Shown here one piece after another: positions 6,842 to 43,399 of a stretch of 46,565 nt of DNA. The DNA lies in assembly GCA_964505765.1 (NCBI GenBank), contig CAZDJQ010000003.1, positions 1-46,565 on the forward strand, read 5' to 3'. The stretch is from an uncultured Gammaproteobacteria bacterium (lineage in GTDB: Bacteria; Patescibacteriota; Microgenomatia; UBA12405; JAHJSD01). Under the pieces are notes generated by a model. The model saw only the letters and a list, made by a program, of their open reading frames with translations, was not told where the DNA came from and searched no databases. Positions within the stretch are counted from its first letter, which is position 1, and each line of letters starts with the position of its first letter. The position numbers and the translations under genes are program-made.

Positions 6842-6888
6842 ATCCATTGCCCCCTTCCTGTGCATGTATCTTTATCATAATAGACTAA

Positions 6889-7949: not shown

Positions 7950-7972
7950 TTTAAATCCTTTCGGAATTTATT

Positions 7973-10570: not shown

Positions 10571-10606
10571 AGATGACTCAAATTGAGAAATTTTTATTTT
10601 TATATC

Positions 10607-10966
10607 TTAATCAATGAACTTTATAGAGCCATTATTTTTTATTTTGATCAGGTTTGATTTAACCCCATTTTTTTTTAGGGCATAAAAGAATGTTTTAAAC
10701 CCTTGCTTAAATTTTTTTTCTTGGCCAAATTCAATAACTCCCTTCAATACACTGCTATGGATAAAAAGAATTCTGTTGTATATATCGACAGCTATCGCTA
10801 TTTCTGCCTCCAGAATAGCTATGGCCGCTTTGGCCAATGCTTCAGCACCAATTTTCACATTCCCGGTTGCATAGGTATGTTCTATCAGCCCGCCCTTTTC
10901 GCTTCTTCTATAAATATTAAATACCTTTTCTATTTCAGCCTCATCCGGCCAATGGCCCTTTTTCAT
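10607..10966 (-). CDS. hypothetical protein
   Basis: 119-aa ORF in operon position between the YbjN-TM and WD40 genes. No family recognised. Confidence 0.45.
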   Translation of the reverse strand: MKKGHWPDEAEIEKVFNIYRRSEKGGLIEHTYATGNVKIGAEALAKAAIAILEAEIAIAVDIYNRILFIHSSVLKGVIEFGQEKKFKQGFKTFFYALKKNGVKSNLIKIKNNGSIKFID

Positions 10967-11063
10967 AATCTTATCTCCTTTCTAGTTTACAAAATATTAA
11001 AAATAATCCCTGACATGATACCCAGTCACCTGATTTTCATTGAACATACAGGCAAGCTTCTTA

Positions 11064-11963
11064 TCAACTGCCGCCCTGGGATTTGAACCAGAATTTCATT
11101 CGTTCCTGATCGTCACGGGCTTCCTCAGCAGTCACCCTGGGAAAGATAATTGCGCTGATAATCCGGGCCAGGAATATGCCGATTATGTATCCAATCAAAG
11201 CCGAAAGCCACCACATCCCCCACCATTGGTAGGTAATATAAAGCAGGCCGACGGCAATAATCGGATGGAAGAAAAAGAAAATAATACGTTTGATTTTGTT
11301 AGGTTCAGTTATTATGTCCGGAATAGCCCTTGCCACCATATACTGTACCAAGAGATAGGTAAAAATAGCTAAAGCTAAAGACCTAATTTGTGTATAAGCA
11401 TAGATTCCTGACCCAATACCCACAAAAAATCCAAGAATGGAAAAAGTAATCTTTATCTTTCTGATACGAGCCTTGAGGTCCTTCTTACGGAGCCCTGCGG
11501 TAATCGGACTGAGTGCACCTATATAGCTCCCCCATCTTGCTGCCTTAGGTGTTGACGGCTCAATCACTTCAGAAGAAAAGGTTTCAGCCACTATATCATT
11601 GTATTTGTCAGCCACTTCAGCAACAGTGTTCACTGCTCTTTCAAACTCATTATAGTCAAGGTTATCCAGCGGCCTTTTTATTTGAAGGTCAATTGTTCCA
11701 ACTTCCTCATTTATGGCAAAAGCGGCGTCTTTAGTCTCAGAAAGATTCAGTGTTAGGAGCTTTCTGAAAAGGGGAAGTAAATTCTCTTGGGGAAGATGAA
11801 TCACCGGAGAGGAAACCAACAGCAGGTCTTCATTCGGAATAGCCACAACCGCAACAGGGGCATTGCCTTTCTTCAGCATACGCTTATTATTTTCGTCAAG
11901 TTCTCCCCATCCGCCTTTCTTTAAAAATTTATTGACTTTATCTAGCTGTTTTGAATTTCTCAT
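11064..11963 (-). CDS. YbjN-like domain fused to a C-terminal multi-TM region, paralog 1
   Basis: 299 aa. The N-terminal half is YbjN-like: NAPVAVVAIP...LPLFRKLLTLNLSETKDAAFAINEEVGTIDLQIKRPLDNLDYNEFERAVNTVAEVADKYNDIV. The C-terminal half holds three to four hydrophobic helices. It is a paralog of 42468..43370. Confidence 0.6.
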   Translation of the reverse strand: MRNSKQLDKVNKFLKKGGWGELDENNKRMLKKGNAPVAVVAIPNEDLLLVSSPVIHLPQENLLPLFRKLLTLNLSETKDAAFAINEEVGTIDLQIKRPLDNLDYNEFERAVNTVAEVADKYNDIVAETFSSEVIEPSTPKAARWGSYIGALSPITAGLRKKDLKARIRKIKITFSILGFFVGIGSGIYAYTQIRSLALAIFTYLLVQYMVARAIPDIITEPNKIKRIIFFFFHPIIAVGLLYITYQWWGMWWLSALIGYIIGIFLARIISAIIFPRVTAEEARDDQERMKFWFKSQGGS

Positions 11964-11972
11964 TAATAGATA

Positions 11973-22097: not shown

Positions 22098-23471
22098 CTA
22101 ATACCGATAAAGATTAATTTTTCTTATGGATTGAGATTTGTCATTGCTTAATTTTATATCTTTCTCCACAAGCCGGTATCCATCTTTGTAAATATAGGCC
22201 TTTACATTTTGGTCTCTCGGAACATTAACAATAAAGAATCCGTCTTTATCGCTCTGGGCTACTTTAAAGAAAAATTCTCCATTTATGTAAGATTCAACAT
22301 CTTCTGAGATAATTTTTTGAGACAAATCTATTTCCAGCACCAGAGATATTTTTTCTTCCGAAACATTAAATCTATCGGAAATTTCTTTAATCGATAATCC
22401 CAGGTTGTTGAGTTCCTGAATAATATAGACAGCTTGAATTGCCTTTAATTTCTCATCAAGGTCTTTAATCTGTTTCAAAGTTCTATCCCGGCGGGCAACA
22501 ATAATTACTGCCGAAACCGGTTTATTGGAATGGCTTGATACAACTTTCCCGGTTAGGTAGGTATCGGTCAGTGTTTCGTCCATGTTGTAGTCACTTTGAA
22601 GCCACTTCAGTGGGATTTCGGGAGTCGAGAATCGATATTTCTGTTGAGCCACAGTAAAGACCTTTAAAGCCCAAGTTACAGGATAGATATACCCCATATC
22701 TGAACCGGCTATGGTAGGAGCTGATACTGCGGCAGGGATTCCGATATAAGCTTTCTCATTTAAAGCCGCCCCTCCGCTGCTCCCAGGCGACATAGCTGCA
22801 TTGGATTTGATAATACCGTTTAGTTCTTCATAGAGCTGGTCGTGGTAGTATCCCAGAAATTTCCCTTCCGTCATAGTCAAAGTAGCTCCTCCTACTCCCG
22901 GGTAACCTATAATAGTGATATCTTCATTGAGCTTCATTCCAAAAGGATTGCCGATATCAACATAAGAAAACTCTTTACTCACTGGATTTCCATCTTTGTC
23001 CTGGTCGATCAAAAAAAGGGCTGTATCCCTTTCCTCATCAAGAGCAATGGGAGTGGCTGAAAACTGCCATTCAGGCACTTTGAGAGGATCATTGTCTTTT
23101 AATCTGTAAACCATAATGGAAGGGCTGACCGGCTTGAATACAAAAAGAAGGTTATTTTCTTTGTCGTAGCGGATGTTATCTTCCATTCGGTAAATATGGT
23201 AATTGGTCAGGATTAGGCCATTTTTACTGATAATTGTTCCTGAACCCGTAGGCATCTTTTCCAATCCTTCCTTTATCAATTGGCCGTGCTTAATCACTTC
23301 GTCCAAATTCTTATTCATAATTGGATTTTTGTAGACAGATATTTTCATCAGATGCCCCAACCGAACAAAGGGCGTAAAATCAGAAGGAATATTATCATCG
23401 GGGCCCGAATAAGAAGGGAGGCTCAAGAAAATTAAAATAAGGACAGTTATTTTTATCTTTTTGCCGGTCAT
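22098..23471 (-). CDS. secreted trypsin-like (S1/PA clan) serine protease with a C-terminal beta-rich domain
   Basis: Signal peptide MTGKKIKITVLILIFLSLPSYS. Catalytic contexts are LTNYHIY (His), RDTALFLI (Asp) and SPGSSGGA (Ser). I chose the start at 23471, which has GAGGA 7 nt upstream. The ORF track start at 23522 would overlap the upstream gene by 41 nt. Confidence 0.78.
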   Translation of the reverse strand: MTGKKIKITVLILIFLSLPSYSGPDDNIPSDFTPFVRLGHLMKISVYKNPIMNKNLDEVIKHGQLIKEGLEKMPTGSGTIISKNGLILTNYHIYRMEDNIRYDKENNLLFVFKPVSPSIMVYRLKDNDPLKVPEWQFSATPIALDEERDTALFLIDQDKDGNPVSKEFSYVDIGNPFGMKLNEDITIIGYPGVGGATLTMTEGKFLGYYHDQLYEELNGIIKSNAAMSPGSSGGAALNEKAYIGIPAAVSAPTIAGSDMGYIYPVTWALKVFTVAQQKYRFSTPEIPLKWLQSDYNMDETLTDTYLTGKVVSSHSNKPVSAVIIVARRDRTLKQIKDLDEKLKAIQAVYIIQELNNLGLSIKEISDRFNVSEEKISLVLEIDLSQKIISEDVESYINGEFFFKVAQSDKDGFFIVNVPRDQNVKAYIYKDGYRLVEKDIKLSNDKSQSIRKINLYRY

Positions 23472-23481
23472 TTTCTTATCC

Positions 23482-24891
23482 TCATTCATTTTCCCATTTA
23501 AGGCTTTCCATAATTTTTTCATACATAGTCAGCCCCTCATCAAAGTCCCCAACTGAAGCGCGGTAGGTAAAAACAAATACATGGTTTTTGAAGGAAATGA
23601 TGTCCGCGTAAACTTTTTGCATTTGAGGAAATTCATGTCGGAGCGAATTCTTATTGGTTAAGTAGCTATAGGCAATTCTTTTCCCCTCCCTGCCTCCTGC
23701 TTTAATGTCCCTTACCATCAGGCTTTCGGTTTCAGTGGATTTTATATATTTTGTAAAATCCTGGATTTCATCTTGCGGCTCAATCGGATTGATCTCTACT
23801 GCAAAAGAAAATCCGGGTGAGGAATTCTCACCGGAAAAAAGTATTTTCGAATCTTCATCTAATAAAGCCGGAAAAGGAGTTATCAAAGAAGTTATCTCGG
23901 TTAAAGGAAATTGAGAAAAGGAGTGTGGATAGAAGAAAGAAATGCCATATTGGTCATTTTCATATTTTTCACCTTGCAGGCCTTTGGAGGAAAAAAGACA
24001 AGCTGAAATTAATAAAACAGTTGCAATCAGGACGGCCAGAAAATCAAATTTCGGAACAACCTGGATTTCTTCAAGAACATTTTTTTGGGTCAACTTTTTC
24101 ATTTTAAAATAGCAAAAAAGCAAAATGGTCAGGGCATAGAAAAGAGTGAGAAAAAAAGATAACCAGAAGGCATGTTCAAACCCTGAAAGAAAGATAAATT
24201 CATTAAGCAGGTAGTAAATTCCTAAAAGAATAATTCCGATCAATATCCCGAAAGAAGAAGAAACATCTGTTCCATGTTTTCTGAATTTTGCTTTTCCGAT
24301 AATATAACCCATCAATGAGCCCACACCGGAATAAATAAGAACATTGGTAGTAGCGGTGTAGGCAATAACAAACAGGGTGAAAGAGGGATGCGGCCATATA
24401 TCATAAATGCTTTTTACAAAAGCAAAGCCAGCCCCTACTATTGCTCCATAAACCATGCCGTCCACAATTTCGTCAAACTTTTCGAGCGGCAGGAAGCCGT
24501 AGCGAATAACAAGATAGAGCATTATACTGACCAGAGGAGCCATGACCAGAAATGAACCCAGCATAAAAAGAGAAGATGAAGCATACATCCATTCCTGAAT
24601 ACGAAAAATGATATGATATAAAGGAAAAGCGCCAAAACCGGCTGCTGCCATGCCGGCAATAAAAGATACCGCCAAATATGACAAAGGTTCAGGCTCTAAC
24701 CTGTCTTGAAGATAGAAAAATATAACCCAGATGATGCTCGGAATAAGTATTACGGCCACAAGCTGGATGAAACGCAGGCTTTCCCCGCTGCTCAGAGCAA
24801 TATTATAGCCCGCTAAATACACGGCCAACAAAAAAACAAATTGAAAAAATAAGTTGGTCTCCCCTGTCCTGAGGAAGCTTTTAAGCCTCAT
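23482..24891 (-). CDS. PrsW-family-like polytopic membrane protein with a C-terminal soluble domain; catalytic motifs not evident
   Basis: FYLQDRLEPEP and KFDEIVDGMVYGAIVGAGFAF match PrsW landmarks (YLKDQYDNEP, FDEHYDGIVYGASVSLGFA). I could not find the EExxK motif, and the expected His positions read N or L. Confidence 0.45.
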   Translation of the reverse strand: MRLKSFLRTGETNLFFQFVFLLAVYLAGYNIALSSGESLRFIQLVAVILIPSIIWVIFFYLQDRLEPEPLSYLAVSFIAGMAAAGFGAFPLYHIIFRIQEWMYASSSLFMLGSFLVMAPLVSIMLYLVIRYGFLPLEKFDEIVDGMVYGAIVGAGFAFVKSIYDIWPHPSFTLFVIAYTATTNVLIYSGVGSLMGYIIGKAKFRKHGTDVSSSFGILIGIILLGIYYLLNEFIFLSGFEHAFWLSFFLTLFYALTILLFCYFKMKKLTQKNVLEEIQVVPKFDFLAVLIATVLLISACLFSSKGLQGEKYENDQYGISFFYPHSFSQFPLTEITSLITPFPALLDEDSKILFSGENSSPGFSFAVEINPIEPQDEIQDFTKYIKSTETESLMVRDIKAGGREGKRIAYSYLTNKNSLRHEFPQMQKVYADIISFKNHVFVFTYRASVGDFDEGLTMYEKIMESLKWENE

Positions 24892-24953
24892 GGATTGTTC
24901 TCCTTAATTTTTTGAAAGGTTGCCGGAGGCTTTATGAATTTTCTCTTTTCACT

Positions 24954-25547
24954 TTATTTCTTGCGCTTTTCAATGATTGTGTCGATTAATCCGTATTTTA
25001 CTGCATCCTCTGGGGTTAGGTAAAAATCCCTGTCCGTATCCCGGGCAATAATCTCCATCGATTGGCCTGTGTGTTGAACCAATATTTCATTTATCCTCTT
25101 TTTTATCCTGTTCATCTCCTTGACCTGAATTTCCATGTCAGATGCCTGACCCTTTGCTCCTCCCAGAGGCTGGTGGATCAGCATCCTGGCGTTGGGAAAA
25201 GCCATCCTTTTCCCTTTTGTCCCTCCGGCCAGAAGAACAGCTCCCATTGAGGCTGCTTGACCTAAACAAATTGTAGCCACATCACAGGAAACATATTGCA
25301 TGGTGTCATAAATAGCCAGTCCTGCTGTAACTTCTCCCCCCGGGCTGTTTATATAGAAAAAGATGTCTTTATCAGGATCTTCAGATTCTAAATAAAAAAA
25401 CTGAGAAACAACAATATCGGCAACATCGTCGTTTATTATCCCCGTTAATAAGACAATTCGAGCCGACAGCAAGCGCGAATACAAATCAACTTGCCTGGCT
25501 CCCTGCGGTGTTTGCTCCACTACATAAGGAACTTTTATAAAAGCCAT
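24954..25547 (-). CDS. clpP: ATP-dependent Clp protease proteolytic subunit ClpP (paralog 2)
   Basis: 197 aa with [15 protein letters not shown] and [21 protein letters not shown]. By eye, most positions are identical to paralog 1. Confidence 0.93.
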
Positions 25548-25583
25548 GTTTAAGTCTCCTCCTAGATTAGATCACTCGCCTGC

Positions 25584-26015
25584 TCACTGTTCCCCATACT
25601 TCTTGCCTCCGAATTGCGCTTTAATTTCATCATCGTATTTGTCTGCTATGTAAGCAACTGACTTAACAGCAACTTCAAGTTCTTTCCGGTTAAGAAAATC
25701 TCCTAGCAGAATATGCTCAAACAGGATTGCCTGCCGGTCCGGGTCAAGCGAAAATTTACCAAATACTACTTTTATATTCTCATAAGCCAAAAACTTTGTC
25801 AGCTCCCCAGTTATTTGAGCCCCGCGATTAACTACTGACACAACTCTAACAATAGTTTGCTCCTTAATCCAATCTACTGGAATTATAAATACCCGGGCAC
25901 TTCCGGCCTGAAGAATGTAATTGTTACGGTCGTCCTTAAGATACGAGCCGAAAGATTCTTTGAGATATTTTTCTATTGTAGACCTTAATGTTTTTACGGC
26001 ATCAGACGCTGCCAT
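25584..26015 (-). CDS. YbjN-like domain protein, paralog 2
   Basis: 143 aa, colinear with 6889..7320 (FGKFSL...FEHILLGDFLNRKELEVAVKSVAYIADKYDDEIKAQFGG). It lies 36 nt upstream of clpP paralog 2. Confidence 0.65.
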   Translation of the reverse strand: MAASDAVKTLRSTIEKYLKESFGSYLKDDRNNYILQAGSARVFIIPVDWIKEQTIVRVVSVVNRGAQITGELTKFLAYENIKVVFGKFSLDPDRQAILFEHILLGDFLNRKELEVAVKSVAYIADKYDDEIKAQFGGKKYGEQ

Positions 26016-26191
26016 TTTTTCACCTCCTTTTTATTTTTTGCTTTTGCCATGTAAAATCAGCGGAAAATATCTTATTTGCTGATTAACCAGTGTTATAACC
26101 ATATCAAACCAGAATTAAACATAGCAAGTAATTTATTCGTTAAATTCCATAGTTAACATAAGTCTGTTCATTATTGTCCCTGTCTCTGCTT

Positions 26192-28795
26192 TTATTCTTC
26201 CCTCCTTATTTCCAGGCCTTCTTTGGCCAGGAATTCTGGTATCTTACGCACGGTGGCTCGATCCCACTCTTTGACGTCGTCAGGAAGCTCTGACCAGCTC
26301 ACAAGATAAGGACTCTTCTTCTTGGCAGTATCTTTTTTCTCTCCCCATCTCCACCCTTCAAGCAGTCTTTCGACATTCCACCGCCCATGCTCCATTTCTG
26401 CCAGAAACTCAACCTCGTCTTCGGTGAACGATAGTAACCTGATTTTTCGATCGGTTACTTTTTGCGCTGTACACCCAATATGACGAAGCTTCTCGAAAAT
26501 GTGGTCAGCCTGTTGAGCATTAGATTCCTTCAAATTAACCGGCAATTTCTCCCAGTCCGCCATCGCCGGATCGTCGGTCTTTAGACCATCCTTTTTGGTG
26601 CGTCGATACTCCTCATGAATTTCCTTAGCCAGTGTCTTCCTAATATCTTCCGCCAGTTTGGAAGCTCCCAAACCGATGAAAGCCCTAACCGTCATAGCAT
26701 CAGCAGGAAGAAGTGCCAGATTTTTCGAATCGACCCACTTTTCATCTTGAAGTAACTTGGCTGCCTCTCGTCCGCTTTCTTCTGCAACCCCCACTGTGGC
26801 TCCCAGAGCTAAGGCAATTCTGTATTCAATGGCTGAAATCATGCCCCCGTTAATACCGAAAACTTTAACCTGAGATGGATCAATGCCGGCAGAAATTATA
26901 TCAATCCAATTTTGCAAGGGCTCCATTGGACTAAAGCCGCTTCCCTCAGTTTTACGAAGTTCGCTGTACCTCCGGTCAACAGTGGCATCAGGGGGGATAA
27001 GTTTAGGAATATAACCAATCGTCCGGATTTTCTCCCGATATTTTTCTCCTGTTTCACCGACCAATCCGCTTATCCCTTGCTTTGTCCCTCCACTTATTAC
27101 CGTACCCTCATATTCTTTAAAACCTTCCTGCATTAAATGTCTGTAGGCTTTCATCTGTTCTTCAATAGATGGGTCACAGCCACCGGCCACAATAACAACA
27201 GGTCCTTGAATAGATTCGTACTGACTTAAGGTCAGCTCTCTTGCCTTCTCTATTGCTTCTTTAGCCTCTTTTGCTTTTTCTTTCTGTTTTTTAATTTTCT
27301 TTGTCTTCTCTTTTTCTTCTTTGCTTTCTTTGACTTCCTCAAGAGTTTCCTTGGCTTTTTTCTCAGCCCTTGATGCTTTACCAATTAAAAGCAATCGCCG
27401 GACCCATTCATACCCTGAGAGCTCATTGGCAACATTTTTGAGTCTTTCCAATGAGGCAAGTGCCGTCTCAATCATAAAGAGTGCCGAACTGATTTGGATG
27501 GCTTTTGCGTAGGCTTCAAGGCTTTTATAAGGCTTGTTTAATAAAAGATAAAACTTGCCCATCATATAAAAGGCCCATGGCAGATTAACGCCAACATCAG
27601 CCTGGTCATTACATCTCTGGATAGCTGAGGTAATCACAGGACTCAAGAGTGAGACTATGGATGTATTCCTGGCTTGAGAAATTTCTAAATCCAAATAGTT
27701 CTCCAATGGATACGGGTCTGACGGATCTAGTTCAAAAGCATGACGGTATAGCTTTCGCACCTTTTCTTCGTCGATTCCCTTCCAGGTGCCGGCCAGGGAA
27801 GCCAGGGCATCCACGTCTTCATTGGGGGGCTCGCATGCCTTCTCCAGATAGCGCTGGCCTTTCTTAAAGCGGCGGCCATTGGGTCTGTGTTTGTTCATTT
27901 TACAAAGAGCAACACCCAGGTCTCTCAGGATAGCCGGCTCCTCTGAATCACGGTACTTGGAAAGCACCTCATCGGCCTTCGGCCAGTCTCCAAGGGTAAT
28001 GGCTAACTTTCCGATGCGGCCGGCGATTTCCACGTTATCAGAATCGTGTTCCAGGATTATCTCCAGCAATTTTATTTCATCCTGCATTTGTTCTTCAGTC
28101 ATGTAAGCCCCGTAGCTTGCGGCGTAGGCGGATAACCCCTCTTTTATTTTAGAAAAGTTTTTATCTGCGCTTTCCAGCATTGCCGCTACCCCGGCAAATT
28201 CGCGCTCCCACTTTGAGGGTATTTGAAAAGAACTTTTATAAGCCAACACATGGGCCATATCCGCCCAAGCGTGCTCAAGAATGGTTCTCACCTGGACTTC
28301 AGCCCATGGATTAGGAAATTTCTTTTCATCCAACAGCACCGGCGGCACCTCTACCTTGACATCTTTATTGGGAAAAACCCCAGGCCTAAATTTGATAATA
28401 TAGTGCACAGAACGGTAACCAAACTCAGTGGGTTTTAGCCGTTGACTAACATCTATTGTGTTATCTTCATCAATCCGGAAATTATTCCTGATAAACTCAG
28501 ATATGGCTCTAACTTCATCAGCGGTATGAACAATGACTCGCCCACCACACAAGTCAGTCAACTGATTTACCGGATCTTTATACTTAGCCTTTTTCCGCTG
28601 ACATTTTTCGGCAAAACTGGCAATGGCCTTGGGCCTTGTTTGCACAATAGCCAAAGGGGCAAGCTTTTTTGCTACTTTTTTGAGAACCTGTTCCAAGACT
28701 TCAGCGTAGAGCTTATAATTATTGTAACGCCTTTTATATTCTTCAACCTGCTGGCGGGTCCATTCTTTGCATTTAATATCTGTTTTCTTAGTCAT
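26192..28795 (-). CDS. RelA/SpoT-type nucleotide pyrophosphokinase - TPR - SLOG-like - RyR-domain fusion protein
   Basis: - N-terminus: TRPKAIASFAEKCQRK...LTDLCGGRVIVHT...EFGYRSVHYIIKF...AEVQVRTILEHAWADMAH, the RelA_SpoT synthetase fold.
- Middle: TPR-like helices and a K/E coiled coil.
- Then: VVIVAGGCDPS...GTVISGGTKQGISGLVGE...GINGGMISAIEYRIALALG, a LOG/SLOG-type Rossmann domain.
- C-terminus: MEHGRWNVERLLEGWRWGEKKD..KKKSPYLVSWSELPDDVKEWDR, a RyR repeat. Confidence 0.8.
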   Translation of the reverse strand: MTKKTDIKCKEWTRQQVEEYKRRYNNYKLYAEVLEQVLKKVAKKLAPLAIVQTRPKAIASFAEKCQRKKAKYKDPVNQLTDLCGGRVIVHTADEVRAISEFIRNNFRIDEDNTIDVSQRLKPTEFGYRSVHYIIKFRPGVFPNKDVKVEVPPVLLDEKKFPNPWAEVQVRTILEHAWADMAHVLAYKSSFQIPSKWEREFAGVAAMLESADKNFSKIKEGLSAYAASYGAYMTEEQMQDEIKLLEIILEHDSDNVEIAGRIGKLAITLGDWPKADEVLSKYRDSEEPAILRDLGVALCKMNKHRPNGRRFKKGQRYLEKACEPPNEDVDALASLAGTWKGIDEEKVRKLYRHAFELDPSDPYPLENYLDLEISQARNTSIVSLLSPVITSAIQRCNDQADVGVNLPWAFYMMGKFYLLLNKPYKSLEAYAKAIQISSALFMIETALASLERLKNVANELSGYEWVRRLLLIGKASRAEKKAKETLEEVKESKEEKEKTKKIKKQKEKAKEAKEAIEKARELTLSQYESIQGPVVIVAGGCDPSIEEQMKAYRHLMQEGFKEYEGTVISGGTKQGISGLVGETGEKYREKIRTIGYIPKLIPPDATVDRRYSELRKTEGSGFSPMEPLQNWIDIISAGIDPSQVKVFGINGGMISAIEYRIALALGATVGVAEESGREAAKLLQDEKWVDSKNLALLPADAMTVRAFIGLGASKLAEDIRKTLAKEIHEEYRRTKKDGLKTDDPAMADWEKLPVNLKESNAQQADHIFEKLRHIGCTAQKVTDRKIRLLSFTEDEVEFLAEMEHGRWNVERLLEGWRWGEKKDTAKKKSPYLVSWSELPDDVKEWDRATVRKIPEFLAKEGLEIRREE

Positions 28796-28823
28796 GAAAA
28801 TTCCTCCGTTTTATTTTATTCAT

Positions 28824-31409
28824 CTATTTAAAAATCGATAACTTCCCTTTGCATGAAGGACATTCATCTAAACCTTCAGCGGTTTGAAAATAGATTGACT
28901 TTCCACAGTGGGGGCAGGTAAATACTTTGGCTGTCAAGCTTGCCCAGAATAATATTATGGCAAAAAGGATCAGCGGCCCACCCAACAGCCATAGCCATGG
29001 GGAGAGCCGGGTCAGTGCATAGCCGCCCCCAGCCAGCAGTACAGCCATCGCTGTAGTAAGCAGTTTTGTCCAGCTGACGCTTTTTCTCTCAGCTCGTGAA
29101 GGAGCTCTACGTACCTTTGGTTTCACCTCCGGTATTGGTGGACGGGGCTTTGGTGGGGAATCCGTGACCTGCTCAGCCTTTTCCCCAGTAGCGGTTTCTT
29201 TTTTGTTCGGCAGGATGGGTTCATTGTTCCTAACATTTGAAGTGACAACCTGATTTGTCTCCTGTTTAAACGGCTCTCTGTAATATCCGAAAATTTCAAG
29301 TATATATACGTTCCCTAAGTTGTCGCCCGCGGCAATCATATTTCCATTGTGATTAAAATGGCAACCTCGGATATATCCGAGAGCTGGATATATGTCTAAT
29401 AGTACTCCCGTCTCAGTATCCCAAAGTCGTATAGTGCTATCGGCACTTGTTGAGGCAATTATTTTACCATCAGGACTAAAAGCACAGGAGAGCACCACAT
29501 TTGTGTGTCCGTTAAGAATGGCCTTTTCTTCAACTCTTTGTGCGTCAAACAACCGAACCGTTTTGTCATGGGACAATATAACCATTTGTCCATCAGGGCT
29601 AAATGCACAGCAGTAGACATCACCTACGACATTTCTGCCGGTTTTAAATTTACCTGTCTGAGCATCCCATAGTCTTAATGCCCCACCATCAATCGCAGTG
29701 GCGAGGATTTTCCCATCCGGACTAAAAGCACAACATTTACTAACTCTGTTTTGTCCTTTAATAACAACCTTTTCCTCACCCGACCTAGAATTCCATAACC
29801 TAATTGTAAAATCTCTACTTGTGGATGCAATTAGCTTTCCATCGTGACTGAAGGCACATGATACAACCGAATCTTCATGTCCTTTGAAGACTGCTTTTTC
29901 ATCACCTGTTTGAGAATCCCAGAGCCTTATTGTTTCATCTTCGCTTGCTGATGCAAGTAATTTTCCGTCAGGATGAAAAACACAGGAATTAATGTCTCCC
30001 GTATGGCTTAAAAAGACAGCCTTTTCTTCTCCAGTTTGGGAATCCCAGATCCTGATGCTCTTATCATCACCTGCCGAGGCAAGTATTTTTCCGTCGGGTC
30101 TGAAGGAGCAGGAATTGATCCAATAGAAAGGGCCTTCGAGAGTAGCTTTATCTTCACTTCTTTGAGTATCCCATAGCCGCGCTGTAAAATCTTTACTTGC
30201 TGTGGCAATTATTTTACCATCAGTACTGAAAGCACAAGCGTTGACAGAGTGTATGTGACCTTTTAGGACGGTCTTTTCTTCACCGGTTTGGGAATCCCAT
30301 AACCTTACTCTCCAATCTTCACTTGCGGAAGCAACCATTTTGCCATCCGGACTAAAGGCACAGTATGTCACCCTGTTGGAATGGCCTCTGAGGGTTAAAA
30401 CCTTCTCATCAGTCTTGACATCCCAAAGTAATACATTTCTTGGATTAGAACCCATACAGACTACTTTGTTACCGTAAGGGGAATAACAGCCTGTTGCCTC
30501 ATAGGAAGAACCATATTTTAATTTGAATCCAGCCTTTCTTCTTTCTGTTTCAACATTCCAGAGCATCACAGCGTAGAGACCTACAGATACGATTGTCTTT
30601 CCATCGGAACTAAAGGCACAGAATATAACTGCCGAAGTGTCGCATTTGAGGATAATTAGTTCTTTACCATTTTCAGCATTCCATAACCTTACAGTCTTAT
30701 CACCTGCAGAAGCTAGCATTTTCCCATCGTGGCGAAATGCACATAATAAGACGGGGTCGGTGTGACCTTCAAGGACGGCCTTTGCTTCACCGGTTTGAGA
30801 ATCCCATAGCCGCGCTGTGCAATCTTTACTTGCTGTGGCAATTATTTTACCATCAGGGCTGAATGTACAATAATTAATAGTCTCAGTATGGCCTATGAGA
30901 ATAGTTCTTAATTGGCCCGTTTTAGCATTCCAAAGCCTTATGGTACAATCTTTACTTGCTGTGGCAATTATTTTACCATCAGGGCTGAAGGAACAAAAGT
31001 TTACATTTTGGGTGTGGCCTCTGAGAACCGCTTTTTCTCGGCCGGTTTTCACATCCCAGAGCCTTATTGTCTTATCAGCACTTGCTGTAGCAACAATATT
31101 TCCGTCGGGACAAAAATCACAATAGTTTACAATGTGGGTATGGCCCTTGAGGATCAATAAAAATGCCTCGGACTCACTAGTCCTGCATTTGTTGTGAAAC
31201 CAGGACTTGGAACCGGGAGAGATCATCCTCTCGAATTCTGGGGCTATCAAATTTGAAACCGGCCCTTCTTTCCCTTCTCCATCCACCCACTGCAGCCGGT
31301 TATACATCTGCTGCCAGAGAATATCAGGCCGCTCCCGCAGGTTGTGAAGCTCCTGGCCTAAAACTCTGGCAAAAGCCTCCAGGACTGTTTTTTGTTCAGA
31401 ATGTTTCAT
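28824..31409 (-). CDS. WD40-repeat protein with adaptor helix, two C-terminal TM helices and a CPxC..CPxC zinc ribbon (W3)
   Basis: 861 aa. The N-terminus carries ELHNLRERPDILWQQMYNRLQW, followed by about 14 WD40 repeats. The tail has two hydrophobic helices (LLTTAMAVLLAGGGYAL, LLGGPLILFAIILFWASL) and then FTCPHCGKSIYFQTAEGLDECPSCKG. Confidence 0.9.
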   Translation of the reverse strand: MKHSEQKTVLEAFARVLGQELHNLRERPDILWQQMYNRLQWVDGEGKEGPVSNLIAPEFERMISPGSKSWFHNKCRTSESEAFLLILKGHTHIVNYCDFCPDGNIVATASADKTIRLWDVKTGREKAVLRGHTQNVNFCSFSPDGKIIATASKDCTIRLWNAKTGQLRTILIGHTETINYCTFSPDGKIIATASKDCTARLWDSQTGEAKAVLEGHTDPVLLCAFRHDGKMLASAGDKTVRLWNAENGKELIILKCDTSAVIFCAFSSDGKTIVSVGLYAVMLWNVETERRKAGFKLKYGSSYEATGCYSPYGNKVVCMGSNPRNVLLWDVKTDEKVLTLRGHSNRVTYCAFSPDGKMVASASEDWRVRLWDSQTGEEKTVLKGHIHSVNACAFSTDGKIIATASKDFTARLWDTQRSEDKATLEGPFYWINSCSFRPDGKILASAGDDKSIRIWDSQTGEEKAVFLSHTGDINSCVFHPDGKLLASASEDETIRLWDSQTGDEKAVFKGHEDSVVSCAFSHDGKLIASTSRDFTIRLWNSRSGEEKVVIKGQNRVSKCCAFSPDGKILATAIDGGALRLWDAQTGKFKTGRNVVGDVYCCAFSPDGQMVILSHDKTVRLFDAQRVEEKAILNGHTNVVLSCAFSPDGKIIASTSADSTIRLWDTETGVLLDIYPALGYIRGCHFNHNGNMIAAGDNLGNVYILEIFGYYREPFKQETNQVVTSNVRNNEPILPNKKETATGEKAEQVTDSPPKPRPPIPEVKPKVRRAPSRAERKSVSWTKLLTTAMAVLLAGGGYALTRLSPWLWLLGGPLILFAIILFWASLTAKVFTCPHCGKSIYFQTAEGLDECPSCKGKLSIFK

Positions 31410-31439
31410 TTCTCGTCTTTGAAAAAGTTATCATTCATA

Positions 31440-32189
31440 TTAAGCAAGATCGGATTCCGGCAGCAGTTCCGTCGATTTGAACTGCACCCTGATTTTTCCA
31501 CTGTGACTCATCTTTCGCTTCACCCGGTTGGCTGAAATGAAAGATTGCTCCAGAATTGAAACAAACTCCAGCGGTTCTTCCTCTTCAACCCTGAGGATCC
31601 AGTCTGTACCGGGAGCGGGAGGCGTCGCCGTGTTCTTTTTCTGACCAATAACCGACAATTCTACTTTGTGTCCCCTGAACTCAAACTCCCAGAATGAACT
31701 GTTCGTACCCCTGTTGGAAACTGGCTTGACGCCCAGGCGTATCTGCAGCCACTCCAGGAGCCGATCCTCAAAGGCGTCTGCCACAGGGTCGCCAGAACGA
31801 ACAGCTCGAACAAGATTGTTCCTCAAAGACTCATCGGGCTCGTCGCCGTCCTTGTTGAAACCATGATTTTCCACCGGCTTTATCTCTTGGATCGTTTGGG
31901 GATTTACCGGAGAAATCCTGGCTTGCTTTGCCTTTTTCCGTTGGCGCCTTCGGAGCTGCCACCATGGACGCTTCTGCGATGATCCCTCTATCGTAACCTT
32001 GAATCCACAATTTGGACAATAAAAATTGTTTTTTTCGACACAGCGATCACAATGTATAAAACCACAATTTCCACATTTTGCATAATGCATGGCCATTGTG
32101 TCCGGATTTTCTTTCGCTACAGGATTCCCTCCCGGGATCTCCGAAAGGGAAATAAACCTGTTACATGACGGACAAATGTTAATACCCAT
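31440..32189 (-). CDS. zinc-ribbon protein with unknown C-terminal domain
   Basis: 249 aa. The N-terminus has ICPSCNRF, KCGNCGFIHCDRC and YCPNCGF (three to four CxxC pairs), then a basic linker and an unrecognised domain of about 130 aa. Confidence 0.55.
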   Translation of the reverse strand: MGINICPSCNRFISLSEIPGGNPVAKENPDTMAMHYAKCGNCGFIHCDRCVEKNNFYCPNCGFKVTIEGSSQKRPWWQLRRRQRKKAKQARISPVNPQTIQEIKPVENHGFNKDGDEPDESLRNNLVRAVRSGDPVADAFEDRLLEWLQIRLGVKPVSNRGTNSSFWEFEFRGHKVELSVIGQKKNTATPPAPGTDWILRVEEEEPLEFVSILEQSFISANRVKRKMSHSGKIRVQFKSTELLPESDLA

Positions 32190-32273
32190 TTTTTTGCCTC
32201 CTCAAGAGCCCGTTGAATAATGACTTATTAAATAAAATCGTTAAATCCAACGATTTCCCGGATAGAACGACTG

Positions 32274-32498
32274 TCAGAAGTGGTAAATAATCGCTCTCTC
32301 TCCGAGATGCTCCTTTTGAACATTAGGGTCTTCACATACAGCAATATCTACTGTCTTATCCGGATAATTGGCCTTGCGGTACTGTTCTGCCGGCAAAATC
32401 TGGTTTTCATGCCAGACCAGCATAACCACATCAGCCTCTCCTTTGTACATATCGCTTTTATTTAGATGATAAACCTCGTTGAATCCATATTTTTCCAT
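32274..32498 (-). CDS. small hypothetical protein
   Basis: 74-aa ORF in operon register (17 nt from the upstream gene). No family recognised. Confidence 0.4.
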   Translation of the reverse strand: MEKYGFNEVYHLNKSDMYKGEADVVMLVWHENQILPAEQYRKANYPDKTVDIAVCEDPNVQKEHLGERAIIYHF

Positions 32499-32515
32499 TT
32501 ATTCCTCCTGTCCAA

Positions 32516-34324
32516 TTAAATCCTCCGGTAAATTTGAACGCCGGCCTGGGCGAGAAAAGAAGGAAGACCCCGAATCATATTCCGATCATACTCTTTAATC
32601 TCCTCGGAAAGCTTTTCCCATGGAACAAGATGCGGACTGGTCTTCTTTTTAATATCTTTATTCCCTGGAGCATAAGACCAGCCTTGTCGGCGTCTCTCGT
32701 CACACCAGCGTTCATGCTCCATTTCAGACAATTTCTCCATTTCTTCCAGTGAAAATTCAAAATCGAATGCTTTCCAATCGGTCAAGGGCTGGATGCCGCA
32801 GCCGATAGCTTTCAGTTTCACTTCAATATGAGCAGCCTGATGCCGGTTTGATTCTTTTAAATCCTCCGGCAAGTTATTCCAATCGACCATTGAAGGGTTC
32901 GTCTCAGGGGTTTCGCCGGCTTTCTTCTGATGGCGGACATAGTCCTCGTGGATAGCCTGAGCCAGGATTTCATGTGTCCCCCCTAAAAGTGCCTCCAGGC
33001 TGCAGGTTTTATCGAGCAAGCCAAAGGCATGAAGCTGGTTTAAATCAAGAGCTTCGCGGTCTTCTTTGATTAATTTGGCCAACCCGGCTTCCTGGCTCAT
33101 ACGCATCACAATCGGCACCTTGTGTTTTTTGGTTCTCCGGTAAAGGGTTAAGGCGTTTACCAGGACATGGACATCATCATCAAAGCAAATATAGACCGCA
33201 TCTACATCAAGATTGCCTTTGGAATCATAGAGAAAATCGCCTCTTTCAAACTCCAACGCATTTTTTTCCATTTGCCGGATATCAAACTCACAGGCCTTAT
33301 CAAGCTGGGGATATTGCAAACACAGAATTTCCACTTTTTTTTCAGCATCTCTGTCAATCACTGCAATCCGCAGCCGCCCGCCGTTTTTTTCCCGCTTCAT
33401 CCACCAGTTTCTGGCCGCCTGGACAACCAGGCTTCTTCCCATCTTACCCAAACCGACAATCAGCATCCTTGGATACCTGCCGCCTGCTTCAATTTCTCCC
33501 TTAAAGGGTGGATGCTCCCTTAGCATGAGACGAGCTCCTTGTTCGAGAACATTGAAAAGCTCCAATCTAAAAGCATCCGCTTCAGCAGCCAGCTCCCATC
33601 CCCTTAGCAAATCGCACAATTCAAGGTCGACAATATGAACAAATGCAGTAAGAGCTTTTTCTTTCCGATAGCGAACTATATCGCGGGCCTTAAGAGCTAT
33701 TTCTGCATTGGTCCCGTCATCAGCACAAACTGTGATGAGGTATTTTGCCCTGTGAACCCTTGCCTTGCGAAGCAGATTTTCGTCTGTTGCATCTCCGATT
33801 AAGACAACTGCTCCCTGTTTCCGGCATTGGTCAATCAAAGGATTTTCCTCATCTTCCTCAACTAACACTACTTGATACCCATGTTCTAAGAACTGCTGAG
33901 ACAAACGCAGTCCTCTTTCTCCAAGTCCACAGATCACAATATGATTCTTAAGAAAACGAACCTTCAGCAACTGCCACTGCTGGCTGAAGACAGCTAAAAG
34001 AGCCTGAATTGCAGCATAAGCAGCCACAGCCGGCATCAAAAATCGGGCTGCCTCAAGCTGCCAGGGAATAGTTCCTCCCACATCGCCGGATTCTAATATC
34101 ATGAGCTGCACAGTTCGGTATGTAATGTCGAATATTGTACTACCTTCCCCTATTGCCAAAGAATATCTGTAAAAACCAATATATCCCAGAACAAAGCCAA
34201 TTATCCAGATTGCCCCAACCAAAGGCCATTCAATGTCATGCCAAATCGGATGAAGCCGTTTTCTTTTAAAGGCCCGGAGGCGATTACGCCAGTTTTTTTT
34301 ACTTCTTCGTCCTTCTTTTGCCAT
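32516..34324 (-). CDS. channel-like membrane protein: 2 TM with pore-like loop - tandem RCK/TrkA-N Rossmann domains - RyR domain
   Basis: The two TM helices flank YRTVQLMILESGDVGG (in pore-loop position, but not a K+ filter). The Rossmann motifs are HIVICGLGERGLRLSQQF and MLIVGLGKMGRSLV. The C-terminus reads MEHERWCDERRRQGWSYAPGNKDIKKKTSPHLVPWEKLSEEIKEYDR (RyR repeat). Confidence 0.72.
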   Translation of the reverse strand: MAKEGRRSKKNWRNRLRAFKRKRLHPIWHDIEWPLVGAIWIIGFVLGYIGFYRYSLAIGEGSTIFDITYRTVQLMILESGDVGGTIPWQLEAARFLMPAVAAYAAIQALLAVFSQQWQLLKVRFLKNHIVICGLGERGLRLSQQFLEHGYQVVLVEEDEENPLIDQCRKQGAVVLIGDATDENLLRKARVHRAKYLITVCADDGTNAEIALKARDIVRYRKEKALTAFVHIVDLELCDLLRGWELAAEADAFRLELFNVLEQGARLMLREHPPFKGEIEAGGRYPRMLIVGLGKMGRSLVVQAARNWWMKREKNGGRLRIAVIDRDAEKKVEILCLQYPQLDKACEFDIRQMEKNALEFERGDFLYDSKGNLDVDAVYICFDDDVHVLVNALTLYRRTKKHKVPIVMRMSQEAGLAKLIKEDREALDLNQLHAFGLLDKTCSLEALLGGTHEILAQAIHEDYVRHQKKAGETPETNPSMVDWNNLPEDLKESNRHQAAHIEVKLKAIGCGIQPLTDWKAFDFEFSLEEMEKLSEMEHERWCDERRRQGWSYAPGNKDIKKKTSPHLVPWEKLSEEIKEYDRNMIRGLPSFLAQAGVQIYRRI

Positions 34325-34333
34325 TATTCTCCT

Positions 34334-42467: not shown

Positions 42468-43370
42468 TTATCTACCACTGCCTTGAGCCTTCATCCAGGC
42501 GCTACTACGTGCCTTATCGTCACGGGTCTCTTCTAAAGTTATCTTAGGCATAATAATTGTCACAATAATTCGCCCAAGGAATAAGCCGCCGAGGTACCCG
42601 ATCAAAGCCGAAAGCCACCACATCTCCCATAATTCATAGGTCCCTAAAAGCAGCGCAACACCAACAGCCGGATGGAAAGCAAAGAAGATAAAACGTTTGA
42701 TTTTGCTGGATTCTGTAATAAGATCGGGGATGGCTCTTGCCACAATAAACTGGGTCCAGAGAAAAACGAAAATGCCCAGCGCCCAGGACAAGGTCTGGGT
42801 GTAGGTGAATATTCCAGCTCCTATTGCAGACACAATACTAAGCACAGTAAAAACAGCCCTGATATTGCGGACACGGTTCCTTGGATCTTTCTTTGGCATA
42901 AATGCAGCAAATGGGTTAAGTGAACTGATATAGCGCCCCCAAGTATTTGCTTTGGTACTATGCAGTAGAACTGCCGGCGAGCCAAAAGTTTTAGCCAAAA
43001 TATCATTGTATCTATCAGCCACCTCTGCGACAGTTCCAACCGATCTTTCTAACTCCGGGTAATCCAGGTTTTCCAACTGTCTCTTTATCTGAAGGTCAAT
43101 CGTACCTGATCCCTCGTTTATGGCAAAGGCAGCGTCTTTAGTATCAGATAGATTCAATGTGAGGAGCTTCCTGAAAAGAGGGAGTAAATTCTCCTCAGGC
43201 AAATTAATTACCGGGGCGGAAACCAATAGCAAGTCTTTTTTTGGAACAGCAACTACTGCGACAGGTGCATTGCCTTTCTTAAGTAAGCATTTATTGTTTT
43301 TATCAAGCTGGCTATTGACCATCTTTTTTAAAAACTTGTTAATCTTGTCAATGCTCTTTTTTTCTGACAT
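42468..43370 (-). CDS. YbjN-like domain fused to a C-terminal multi-TM region, paralog 2
   Basis: 300 aa, colinear with 11064..11963 (NAPVAVVAVP...LPLFRKLLTLNLSDTKDAAFAINEGSGTIDLQIKRQLENLDYPELERSVGTVAEVADRYNDIL, followed by hydrophobic helices). Confidence 0.6.
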   Translation of the reverse strand: MSEKKSIDKINKFLKKMVNSQLDKNNKCLLKKGNAPVAVVAVPKKDLLLVSAPVINLPEENLLPLFRKLLTLNLSDTKDAAFAINEGSGTIDLQIKRQLENLDYPELERSVGTVAEVADRYNDILAKTFGSPAVLLHSTKANTWGRYISSLNPFAAFMPKKDPRNRVRNIRAVFTVLSIVSAIGAGIFTYTQTLSWALGIFVFLWTQFIVARAIPDLITESSKIKRFIFFAFHPAVGVALLLGTYELWEMWWLSALIGYLGGLFLGRIIVTIIMPKITLEETRDDKARSSAWMKAQGSGR

Positions 43371-43399
43371 ATATCACCTTTTTTATTGGTTTGTGTTAT

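Follow-up and report, generated by a model that had tools for sequence, protein, structure and literature searches.

The stretch of DNA analysed here (the window; 46,565 nucleotides, contig CAZDJQ010000003.1 of GenBank assembly GCA_964505765.1) encodes two proteins that end in the same type of module, a tandem pair of RyR repeats. The first, of 602 amino acids (aa), is encoded by the open reading frame (ORF) 32516..34324 and joins two predicted transmembrane segments (2TM) and two RCK-like Rossmann domains to the RyR pair (RCK-RyR); the second, of 867 aa (26192..28795), carries a RelA_SpoT synthetase domain, a TPR region and a probable SLOG domain ahead of it (RelA-SLOG-RyR, or RelA-RyR). Both ORFs lie on the minus strand and start with ATG. 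Together with a NUDIX hydrolase gene they form a triad that recurs in several phyla, and the cluster has the look of a bacterial module for immune signalling that has not been described before. Our tentative proposal, which may well be correct, is that it constitutes a nucleotide-signalling conflict (immune-type) module in which RyR is the shared ligand sensor on two effectors and the NUDIX hydrolase the eraser.

The RyR module and its two carriers

A BLASTP comparison aligned residues 452-600 of the 602-aa protein with residues 720-865 of the 867-aa protein at 46% identity and 64% positives (E 1e-35). A previous sequence-only reading of this DNA had claimed homology for the C-terminal ~130 aa of the two ORFs, and both motif lines that it quoted can be read in the alignment. 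It had also identified the second of its two motif blocks as the RyR repeat, an assignment borne out by significant Pfam RyR (PF02026) matches in both proteins, with 68.2 bits (E 7.5e-19, aa 529-598) in the 602-aa protein and 48.1 bits (E 1.4e-12, aa 784-864) in the 867-aa protein against a gathering score of 27.4. A PDB sequence search with the 602-aa query matched Repeat12 (R12) of RyR1/2/3 and a Bacteroides thetaiotaomicron RyR-domain protein (RyR repeats, E 4e-20 to 1e-8). The RyR homology of both C-termini holds well past chance. The first block, however, is no separate element but a diverged RyR repeat, so each protein bears a tandem pair. This follows from three observations: block 1 scanned alone gave a sub-threshold Pfam RyR score (20 bits, E 7e-4), a secondary BLAST high-scoring segment pair ran crosswise, from block 1 in one of the proteins to block 2 in its partner, and the His of His-x-x-Trp/Tyr, a Pro and a Leu were invariant when all four repeats of the window were aligned to one bacterial and two RyR1 repeats. 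In the 602-aa protein, repeat 1 covers aa 450-515 (32780..32977; H459-x-x-Y462, NPSMVDW, KESN493R) and repeat 2 aa 516-602 (32519..32779; H537-x-x-W540, SPH565LVPW, KEYD580R); the tandem module of the RelA protein covers aa 716-867 (26195..26650). All features described for the two carriers are on the minus strand.

In Foldseek searches, both C-termini aligned over 187-196 columns with human RyR3 R12 crystal structures at TM-scores of 0.54-0.59; for the two repeats of the 602-aa protein, the alignment with RyR3 R12 comprised 189 columns with a TM-score of 0.59 and a root-mean-square deviation of 3.6 Å. Each carrier is predicted to hold a complete intramolecular R12-like unit, with its two repeats forming one pseudo-symmetric domain. 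Of the pocket residues, repeat 2 has H537, W540, H565 and D580, and repeat 1 has H459, Y462 and N493. An alignment of 35 RCK-RyR members, 49-77% identical to the query, shows no variation at H459, Y462 and H537 and at least 90% conservation of W540; at the Asp position several members of the family have Asn, as does repeat 1 in each of the two window proteins.

The equivalent positions are ligand contacts in characterised proteins. The His-x-x-Trp pair touches the ligand in RyR R12 (Trp880/Trp994; PMC12627627), in RyDEP, where the matching pair is H75/W78 (PMC13232231), and in RyR Tad, where it is H129/W132 and the dissociation constant for 3' cyclic ADP-ribose (3'cADPR) is 43 nM (bioRxiv 10.64898/2026.06.04.730250). 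Crystal and cryo-EM structures of R12 from RyR1-3 show dantrolene and ADP or AMP-PCP bound jointly in the inter-repeat cleft (PMC12627627, PMC13642953), and R12 of RyR1 has been proposed as an ADP sensor (PMC13642953). Phage RyR-domain proteins, which use equivalent His/Trp/His/Asp positions, are reported to bind 2'/3' cADPR at nM affinity or to cleave it to ADP-ribose (ADPR), defeating Thoeris (PMC13232231; bioRxiv 10.64898/2026.06.04.730250).

The 602-aa protein was modelled with AlphaFold2 (AF2) from a family alignment (pLDDT 86.3, pTM 0.81). In the monomer, helix 12-58, short helix 64-76, loop 77-87 and helix 88-112 are followed by two Rossmann domains and the RyR tandem. The first transmembrane segment (TM1) is predicted at aa 31-55 (34160..34234) within helix 12-58, after a strongly basic N-terminal tail and with a hydropathy maximum of 1.8; the short helix and the loop LESGDVGGTIP would form a re-entrant segment (34064..34135, AF2 secondary structure), and hydropathy and model both place TM2 at aa 88-112 (33989..34063). 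RCK1 (aa 128-270, 33515..33943; G133-x-G-x-x-G138, E156) was recognised by Pfam TrkA_N (aa 129-217, E 3e-20) and matched the RCK domain of Kch as well as TrkA, KefC and YbaL in the PDB. The second RCK-like domain (aa 285-447, 32984..33472; G291-x-G-x-x-G296, D324) is weak by sequence, with a non-significant TrkA_N score (E 0.4), and is recognised by its GxGxxG motif and the beta-alpha-beta Rossmann fold of the model; in both Rossmann domains GxGxxG is accompanied by an acidic residue that follows strand 2. Of the 2TM pore-loop protein with two RCK domains that had been described from the letters, the topology thus reappears in the model and the first RCK domain is clear, but the second is found at the level of fold only. 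LESGDVGG (residues 77-84, between the predicted short helix and TM2) does occupy the filter position, as had been noticed; a TVGYG-type selectivity sequence is absent from the protein and its family, which has x-S-G-x-V-x-G instead.

The best Foldseek match of this model was a full-length chain of the potassium channel GsuK (4gx5_B, with 548 modelled residues), aligned over 529 columns at E 4e-10 and followed by tandem-RCK TrkA, full-length MthK and RyR3 R12. Alignments extended over 402-413 columns with tandem-RCK TrkA and up to 590 with GsuK. Across the 35-member alignment the membrane part is conserved on a par with the soluble domains, and conservation in the protein peaks in TM2 (mean column identity 0.75). 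In the membrane segment Y69, L74, G80, W88 and L90 are invariant and D66, Q73, S79, G84 and R94 nearly so (D66, Q73, S79 and G84 in at least 90%); the loop consensus of the family is (L/F)(E/Q)SGx(V/I)xG. A library clustered at 50% contained at least 2,447 representatives of the RCK-RyR family at E<=1e-30, and the best 150 all had E<1e-129 and nearly all matched across the full query length. Five members (P0254, P0257, P0260, P0261, P0276) are 730-1298 aa long with 2-7 separately matched stretches, which suggests that further RyR repeats or partner domains have been fused to them.

The 867-aa protein begins with the RelA_SpoT synthetase domain (aa 1-230, 28106..28795; Pfam match aa 53-189, 71.9 bits, E 7e-20). 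Compared with Bacillus subtilis YjbM/SAS1, the small-alarmone-synthetase (SAS) motifs are intact (R54/K56, D81..G84, Y127-R-S-x-H131, E166-x-Q-x-R-T), the catalytic Glu and the motifs for binding ATP and the acceptor among them, and judged by these residues the protein is a small-alarmone-synthetase-like pyrophosphokinase. Its AF2 model (pLDDT 84.7) matched SAS1/SAS2 at a TM-score of 0.76 and also the TPR structures of SPY/OGT and RyR3 R12. The protein is no RelQ orthologue, since the NCBIfam equivalog model GTPPhKinYjbM (1e-13) gave 51 bits against a cut-off of 320. The domain is followed by a TPR region (aa ~231-520, 27236..28105), recognised by family matches and by helical repeats in the model, and by a probable SLOG domain of the LSDAT_prok type (aa ~530-710, 26666..27208). 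LSDAT_prok (PF18171) remains below threshold in the window protein itself (aa 532-692, 22.3 bits; gathering score 25.4) but matches 29 of 32 aligned family members at E<=0.01 (best 2.3e-9), and the model shows a Rossmann-like beta-alpha pattern there; the 50 best Foldseek matches included no SLOG structure. RelA_SpoT and RyR were each found in all 32 aligned members, TPR families in 11-26 and TPR-S in 16. The family comprises more than 700 matches of near-constant length and architecture, and its source labels include Bacteroidota, Planctomycetes, Anaerolineae, Acidobacteria, Eisenbacteria and one Altiarchaeales archaeon.

The third member of the triad, the NUDIX hydrolase (151 aa, 36683..37138, minus strand; Pfam NUDIX 1.7e-19), has an intact canonical Nudix box; an identical sister contig is annotated with an alternative start, which gives 138 aa (36683..37099). 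It is closest to the NTP pyrophosphatases NudG, MutT and NudI, not to the NUDT9/ADPR pyrophosphatases. The assembly of SLOG, NUDIX, RelA and a channel-like protein pointed out in the sequence-only reading is present, with SLOG sub-threshold in the window protein. PADLOC assigned its candidate-defence model PDC-S07 to the NUDIX hydrolase (1e-28); the candidate models PDC-S07 and PDC-S33 matched the NUDIX and RelA parts only, and PADLOC had no model for the RCK-RyR protein and no Thoeris model (ThsA/ThsB) for any protein of the cluster.

Recurrence of the cluster and its neighbours

Relatives were collected by exact-protein look-ups and a tblastn scan of metagenome contigs, which gave 458 relatives; the best 80 loci were kept and redundancy was then removed. 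A single-protein scan of genome contigs gave 7 loci, and the survey was drawn mainly from metagenome contigs. All survey counts below are tblastn lower bounds from a similarity-ranked sample without phylogenetic correction.

The sequence-only reading had made its coupling idea depend on whether the two RyR carriers co-occur in other genomes, and they do so in several phyla. A NUDIX gene upstream and a RelA-SLOG-RyR gene downstream of RCK-RyR were found in the window, L009, L012, L015, L016, L017, L021 and L026, among others. The flanks differ from locus to locus, and are unrelated in, for example, L015, L016 and L017 (L017 is from an Acidobacteriota metagenome-assembled genome, MAG). The two RyR carriers are separated by two genes in the window (31440..32189 and 28824..31409), and their genes overlap in L015 and L016. 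L009 has the minimal order ClpB / NUDIX / RCK-RyR / RelA-RyR / YbjN / ClpP, to which the window and L012 have added genes.

Where the RCK protein was at least 55% identical and at least 3 kb were available on both sides, 7 of 9 loci had the RelA partner and 8 of 9 NUDIX; below 55% identity the RelA partner was found in 3 of 23 (two RelA-seeded loci are counted in). Most of these more distant RCK-RyR genes have other partners. The commonest pairing is that of NUDIX with RelA-SLOG-RyR, and RelA-RyR plus NUDIX, with NUDIX directly upstream of RelA, occurs without an RCK gene in an Eisenbacteria MAG (L098) and an Altiarchaeales MAG (L100). NUDIX was not detected in L023, L052/L053, L059 and L101. 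In L101 the RCK protein beside RelA-RyR has no RyR module (5548-7011), and in L025 (8001-9700) and L099 (4383-6083) the module of the RCK protein is degenerate, the His of repeat 1 being changed to Tyr and a deletion of ~43 aa removing HxxW..SPHLVPW from repeat 2; STAND, NUDIX and RelA-RyR genes still adjoin these RCK genes. The pairing of RCK-RyR with RelA-RyR is non-obligatory.

A feature that the sequence-only reading had missed is the gene directly upstream of RCK-RyR in the window, which encodes a STAND NTPase with a DUF4062 (TIR-like NADase) domain and a NACHT domain (34334..36664, minus strand; Pfam DUF4062 2.6e-12, NACHT 3.6e-10) and ends 9 nt upstream of the RCK-RyR gene. DUF4062-NACHT genes recur in L012, L018, L020, L025, L099 and L101, and adjacency to TIR or DUF4062 genes, likewise overlooked, is frequent across the RCK-RyR family. 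TIR_2 homologues were present in 22 and DUF4062 homologues in 12 of 82 non-redundant RCK-seeded loci; of the 33 loci having one or the other, 19 had the ORF at most 500 nt away from that of RCK-RyR and 24 had it on the same strand. All ten neighbours tested were confirmed by Pfam as N-terminal TIR_2 or DUF4062 proteins, with C-terminal parts that vary (FGE-sulfatase, TPR, WD40, solute-binding, NACHT, cyclase plus AAA_16). Among 30 non-redundant loci with flanks of at least 3 kb, a RelA partner was found in 8, an AAA-type RyR partner in 10 and TIR or DUF4062 in 17, so that at least one of these was present in 23. Loci with RelA but no RCK gene show the same company: L098 has TIR_2 genes and a DUF4062-STAND gene, and the archaeal L100 reads TIR / NUDIX / RelA-SLOG-RyR / NACHT. 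DUF4062 is reported to be a TIR-like NADase that converts NAD+ to ADPR in bacteria (Swarozyc) and in human TEP1 (bioRxiv 10.64898/2026.05.01.722283), and the Evangelion preprint reports DUF4062 defence by a single gene.

The AAA-type partner is a second RyR-bearing family beside RCK-RyR, encoded at many of the loci that lack RelA, of 850-920 aa, with an AAA/STAND-like P-loop at residues ~440-540, a C-terminal RyR and an N-terminal region of ~430 aa without family assignment. It was found in 18 of the 82 non-redundant loci (for example L035:5319-7982, L063:4796-7438 on the minus strand, L070:7639-10221, L078:1548-4079 and L095:4635-7322), jointly with the RelA type in L017 and L026. Small RyR-only ORFs of 155-201 aa also lie directly beside RCK-RyR (L003:9899-10501, L005:14223-14714, L035:334-894), with further small RyR-only ORFs beside RCK-RyR genes at L055:4334-4867, L076:8043-8507 and L090:3290-3793; they could be host buffers or sponges, or separate subunits. 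A distant split version, the only one in the plasmid collection, is encoded on plasmid CP146529.1 of Arcobacter sp. AZ-2023 (strain Kiel 2759; L102, 41442-56751) by genes for a 325-aa NAD-binding protein with one hydrophobic helix, a 166-aa RyR-domain protein and a 728-aa DUF4062 protein. These genes are part of a defence island of the plasmid and have a type I restriction enzyme, an integrase, a recombinase and a transposase as neighbours.

In the window, 22098..46006 is an unbroken series of minus-strand ORFs with short gaps. It includes a WD40 protein between the RyR carriers (28824..31409, recognised by sequence and Pfam) and two more within 37101..42109 (37101..40451 and 40799..42109); five WD40-repeat proteins are encoded in the window altogether, the others at 7973..10570 and 19492..21537. 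The first three share an N-terminal module of ~85 aa (..SEQKTVLEAF..LGQELHNL..P.ILWQQMYNRLQW..), termed WDN, which other loci likewise encode next to STAND and RCK-RyR genes. In L012 and L098 a single fusion protein, of 1543 aa and 1588 aa respectively, combines DUF4062-NACHT with WD40. The window WD40 proteins look like a split NLR with alternative sensor arms, and 28824..31409 is probably one such arm, detached from the STAND protein. The second gene between the RyR carriers (31440..32189) encodes a 249-aa protein with N-terminal Cys-rich zinc-ribbon motifs, for which no significant family was found in Pfam, PADLOC or NCBIfam-type scans and which L008 and L099 also have beside the RCK-RyR gene. 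Between these two genes, the identical sister contig has a predicted 74-aa ORF without family assignment (L008 7945-8169), corresponding to 32190..32515 of the window. The segment 15081..17360 (minus strand) holds a separate RCK gene without RyR (388 aa; TrkA_N and a Slo-like RCK) adjoining one for a Na+/Ca2+ exchanger family protein; L012 has a comparable 386-aa RCK gene near its cluster.

The whole RyR cluster lies inside a minus-strand bracket of chaperone and protease genes (24954..46006). Its upstream end consists of a ClpB-like ATPase with a C-terminal zinc ribbon (43400..46006) and a CesT-like protein (42468..43370), together 42468..46006, and its downstream end of a TY-Chap1/YbjN-like chaperone (25584..26015) and ClpP (24954..25547), together 24954..26015. 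The zinc ribbon, C-x-C-G-x-x-N-P-x(4)-W-C-x-x-C-G, is nearly identical at the C-termini of the ClpB-like ATPase and of the WD40 proteins 37101..40451 and 40799..42109. A parallel bracket at 6248..14201 (minus strand), ordered ClpB-like / CesT-like / cargo / TY-Chap1 (YbjN)-like / ClpP, encloses the single WD40 protein 7973..10570. The bracket was considered as part of the core of the cluster and ruled out, since the triad occurs without ClpB...ClpP in L015-L017; it encloses the cluster in close relatives only (L009, L012, L021, L023) and may be a Clp-based frame for the regulation or quality control of these large repeat proteins.

A proposed shared nucleotide receptor and its alternatives

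Beyond domain identity, fold and gene context, all steps of the mechanism that we propose are inferred. STAND/WD40 (or TIR-sensor) proteins would sense a trigger, upon which the TIR-like domain would turn NAD+ into ADPR or a related adenine nucleotide; in the window, DUF4062-NACHT with its separate WD40 arms would be the sensor and signal generator. The nucleotide would bind in the RyR cleft, and possibly at the SLOG and RCK sites too. Binding would open the membrane pore of the 2TM-RCK protein, the first output, and ion gradients would collapse; it would also activate the RelA/SAS-type enzyme, the second output, whose toxic or alarmone-type pyrophosphorylated product would lead to growth arrest. 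By hydrolysing the signal or the RelA product, NUDIX would set a threshold and protect the uninfected cell. ADPR, a cADPR isomer and ADP are candidates for the ligand, and the RelA product might itself be a second messenger that gates the pore. On this proposal the shared module most likely couples the two outputs through one ligand, not through contact. The wider generalisation is possible but less probable: host-encoded tandem RyR modules would be the receptors of a very large prokaryotic class of immune effectors that read NAD-derived nucleotides made by TIR or DUF4062 proteins, with the 2TM-RCK pore and the RelA-type pyrophosphokinase among these effectors.

Several observations weigh against the shared-receptor proposal, in addition to the sampling of the survey described above. 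The pore is a predicted feature of a monomer fold. Pfam gave no pore homology, with the N-terminal 127 aa scanned alone included (no Ion_trans_2); the family profile found no pore match for the membrane segment among all PDB sequences; and hhalign against the pore regions of KcsA, MthK and NaK, with approximate target sequences, returned a probability of 0.2%. Loop positions 78 (E/Q/R/H) and 81 (D/A/S/N/G) are variable. In some of the system's RCK proteins, to judge from sequence, the RyR pocket is no longer present. Seven of the 30 well-flanked loci had none of the partner types, and the minimal triads L015 and L016 had no TIR or DUF4062 match within the available flanks; a TIR-made signal is therefore not the sole input. 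The DUF4062 systems described so far (that of bioRxiv 10.64898/2026.05.01.722283 included) are reported to be single-gene NAD+ depleters that need no second effector. Finally, the likeness of the NUDIX hydrolase to NTP pyrophosphatases means that an eraser of alarmones fits better than an eraser of ADPR.

Since all sequence-level pore tests were negative, the channel claim rests on the predicted fold and on conservation, and "channel-like, not K+-selective" is a reasonable but unproven description. The same negative results speak for the idea that the 602-aa protein is a membrane anchor only, that is, a TrkA/KtrA-like, tethered nucleotide-binding regulator of some other transporter or enzyme without a pore of its own. 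The variable loop positions, the modest hydrophobicity of TM2 and the single hydrophobic helix of the distant Arcobacter version agree with such a role. However, the membrane segment is conserved like the enzymatic domains and has invariant residues, which is unusual for a plain anchor, the spacing of helix, short helix, loop and helix is that of 2TM channels, the best structural match runs along the whole GsuK chain, and no conserved transporter gene adjoins in the triad loci. We regard an anchor without a pore as unlikely.

The sequence-only reading had proposed that the shared RyR module couples the nucleotide enzyme to a membrane effect. The nucleotide theme is plausible, as R12 and other RyR modules bind ADP/ATP, ADPR and cADPR isomers, but direct docking and obligatory pairing do not hold up as well. 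With docking, the RyR modules would bind each other and tether the RelA enzyme to the membrane protein, and the activity or conformation of the enzyme would gate the pore through contact. The identical module type on adjacent, sometimes overlapping genes is suggestive of this, as are the obligate dimers formed by the single-repeat RyR proteins RyDEP and RyR Tad, the further pairing of RCK-RyR with the AAA-type RyR family and small RyR-only ORFs, and a resemblance to the adaptor-domain coupling logic of other conflict systems (PMC7159879). Against it, the two repeats of each protein are predicted to pack as a complete R12-like unit, and because each protein has a complete tandem pair no unpaired half-domain is left for a heterodimer. 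The adjacent modules are 46% identical, compared with 50-77% overall between orthologous RCK-RyR proteins of other loci, and the conserved residues are those of the ligand pocket. In addition, RelA-RyR is found without RCK-RyR, and RCK proteins without a functional RyR module still lie beside RelA-RyR. Physical docking is therefore disfavoured, and we consider it improbable.

Another alternative is a housekeeping role: an ADP/ATP- or NAD-sensing cation channel, an alarmone synthetase and NUDIX would be co-regulated so as to tune ion balance and the stringent response to the energy state, and the STAND, TIR and WD40 neighbours would be incidental in genomes where such genes abound. Such a role would be in keeping with the description of RyR1 R12 as an ADP sensor (PMC13642953), with NAD+/ADP binding by the RCK domains of GsuK (PDB 4gx1, 4gx2), with the ordinary metabolic nature of RelA/SAS and MutT/NudG-type NUDIX proteins, with ClpB and ClpP flanking the cluster in close relatives and with the minimal triads that show no TIR match. 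It is nevertheless a doubtful explanation: the partner genes are variable and modular, immediate same-strand adjacency of TIR/DUF4062 genes is far above that expected for random placement in the flanks, the distant split genes belong to a defence island on a plasmid, with a type I restriction enzyme, integrase and transposase, the K+ selectivity sequence is missing, and PADLOC candidate-defence models match the NUDIX and RelA parts. That the modules are enzymes which cleave cADPR-type signals like RyDEP, ending or buffering signalling on their carriers, is very improbable, even though the RyDEP His/Asp dyad H75/D117 lies in the same pocket (PMC13232231), the matching motifs of repeat 2, HERW and KEYDR, contain H537 and D580 and the small RyR-only ORFs could act as buffers, as 7 of 8 other phage homologues were reported not to cleave the signals whereas 6 of 8 bound them (PMC13232231), the Asp is replaced by Asn in the proteins named above, and it is hard to see why a signal-cleaving enzyme should be fused to a membrane RCK protein.

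Significance and relation to known systems

Databases already list both families, with generic protein names ("NAD-binding protein", "RyR domain-containing protein"), and the new element is their recurring system-level association together with the functional reading that this association allows. SLOG/LSDAT was reportedly defined by Burroughs and colleagues in 2015. Our literature searches found no description of RCK-RyR or RelA-SLOG-RyR, of which an earlier mention in Burroughs et al. 2015 (NAR 43:10633) is possible. Kaur et al. 2020 (PMC7159879) do not mention RyR, TrkA or DUF4062, and the parts consulted of the 2025-26 papers on R12, phage RyR, DUF4062 and Evangelion do not mention host-encoded RCK-RyR or RelA-SLOG-RyR.

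At least ~2,400 sequence clusters join an R12-type pocket to a channel-like RCK protein, beside TIR, DUF4062, STAND and RelA-SLOG genes. If the shared-receptor proposal is true, they would represent a new class of effectors and receptors in nucleotide-based bacterial immunity, and phage RyR proteins would gain a natural target logic as counter-measures against this receptor-ligand pair. They would also provide a small bacterial model for a disputed question in calcium signalling, how R12 relays nucleotide binding to the pore, and control of a channel by adenine nucleotides or ADPR through R12 would be ancient, older than the animal ryanodine receptors. Paired with NUDIX, the RelA-SLOG-RyR proteins also make up a new family of regulated enzymes that resemble toxSAS. 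The Arcobacter split locus, in a sequenced and named strain, makes the hypothesis directly testable, and should the proposal fail, a widespread, well-delimited and conserved gene triad remains.

The nearest functional parallels would be an RCK-gated channel of the GsuK/MthK type with an R12 sensor added for the membrane protein, a regulated toxSAS/SAS for the RelA enzyme and Thoeris-like TIR-signal systems for the cluster as a whole. With GsuK, the multi-ligand-gated K+ channel of Geobacter sulfurreducens (PDB 4gx0-4gx5), and with MthK, Kch and TrkA, the 602-aa protein shares the predicted arrangement of 2TM and two RCK/Rossmann domains and the GxGxxG sites. It differs from GsuK and MthK in the lack of TVGYG and of profile-level pore homology, in its additional C-terminal RyR tandem and in its context of TIR, STAND and RelA genes instead of ion homeostasis. 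The tandem RyR pair, its fold over ~190 columns, the His-x-x-Trp motif and the attachment to a channel-like protein are shared with animal R12 (also RY12). Here, however, the module is C-terminal, is carried by a 602-aa 2TM protein and by a soluble enzyme, and has Tyr for Trp in repeat 1; outside the module the window proteins are not homologous to RyR.

RyDEP and RyR Tad have the Pfam family and the pocket residues in common with the window modules. They are small, single-repeat phage homodimers that act as anti-defence sponges or glycosidases, whereas the window modules are host-encoded tandems fused to putative effectors. A recent host-to-phage transfer of RyR from the clade of the window was considered and found unsupported, with one weak tblastn match among 50,697 phage records. 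Thoeris-like systems offer the parallel of a TIR gene beside RyR/SLOG carriers, a membrane effector and a possible signal-resetting hydrolase. In the window, by contrast, PADLOC detected no ThsA/ThsB, the generator would be an NLR-like DUF4062-NACHT protein, the effector types are new and signalling is deduced from the genes.

The RelA protein has its catalytic domain and motifs in common with small alarmone synthetases and toxSAS enzymes (RelQ/YjbM, RelP, CapRel, FaRel). ToxSAS enzymes are accompanied by small alarmone hydrolase antitoxins, and a hydrolase gene usually adjoins RelA-RyR likewise; the window enzyme differs in its 867 aa with TPR, SLOG and RyR regulatory domains and in having NUDIX, not an HD-type hydrolase, as neighbour. 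In TRPM2 (SLOG/MHR1-2, 6TM and NUDT9H), SLOG, NUDIX, a channel-like protein and an ADPR-type theme come together as well. The parallel remains the loose analogy for which it was originally offered, because the NUDIX hydrolase is MutT/NudG-like, not NUDT9-like, and the channel-like protein has a 2TM-RCK layout where TRPM2 is a 6TM TRP channel. Homology to TRPM2 beyond the theme was rejected: 6TM, SLOG and NUDT9H do not occur on a single chain here, the domains being spread over three proteins, and TRPM2 has no RyR. With the DUF4062 systems Swarozyc and Evangelion, and with STAND proteins of the NWD1/TEP1/NPHP3 type, the cluster shares DUF4062-NACHT with WD40 partners; its own features are that the WD40 arms are encoded by separate genes and that RyR-bearing proteins are encoded alongside.

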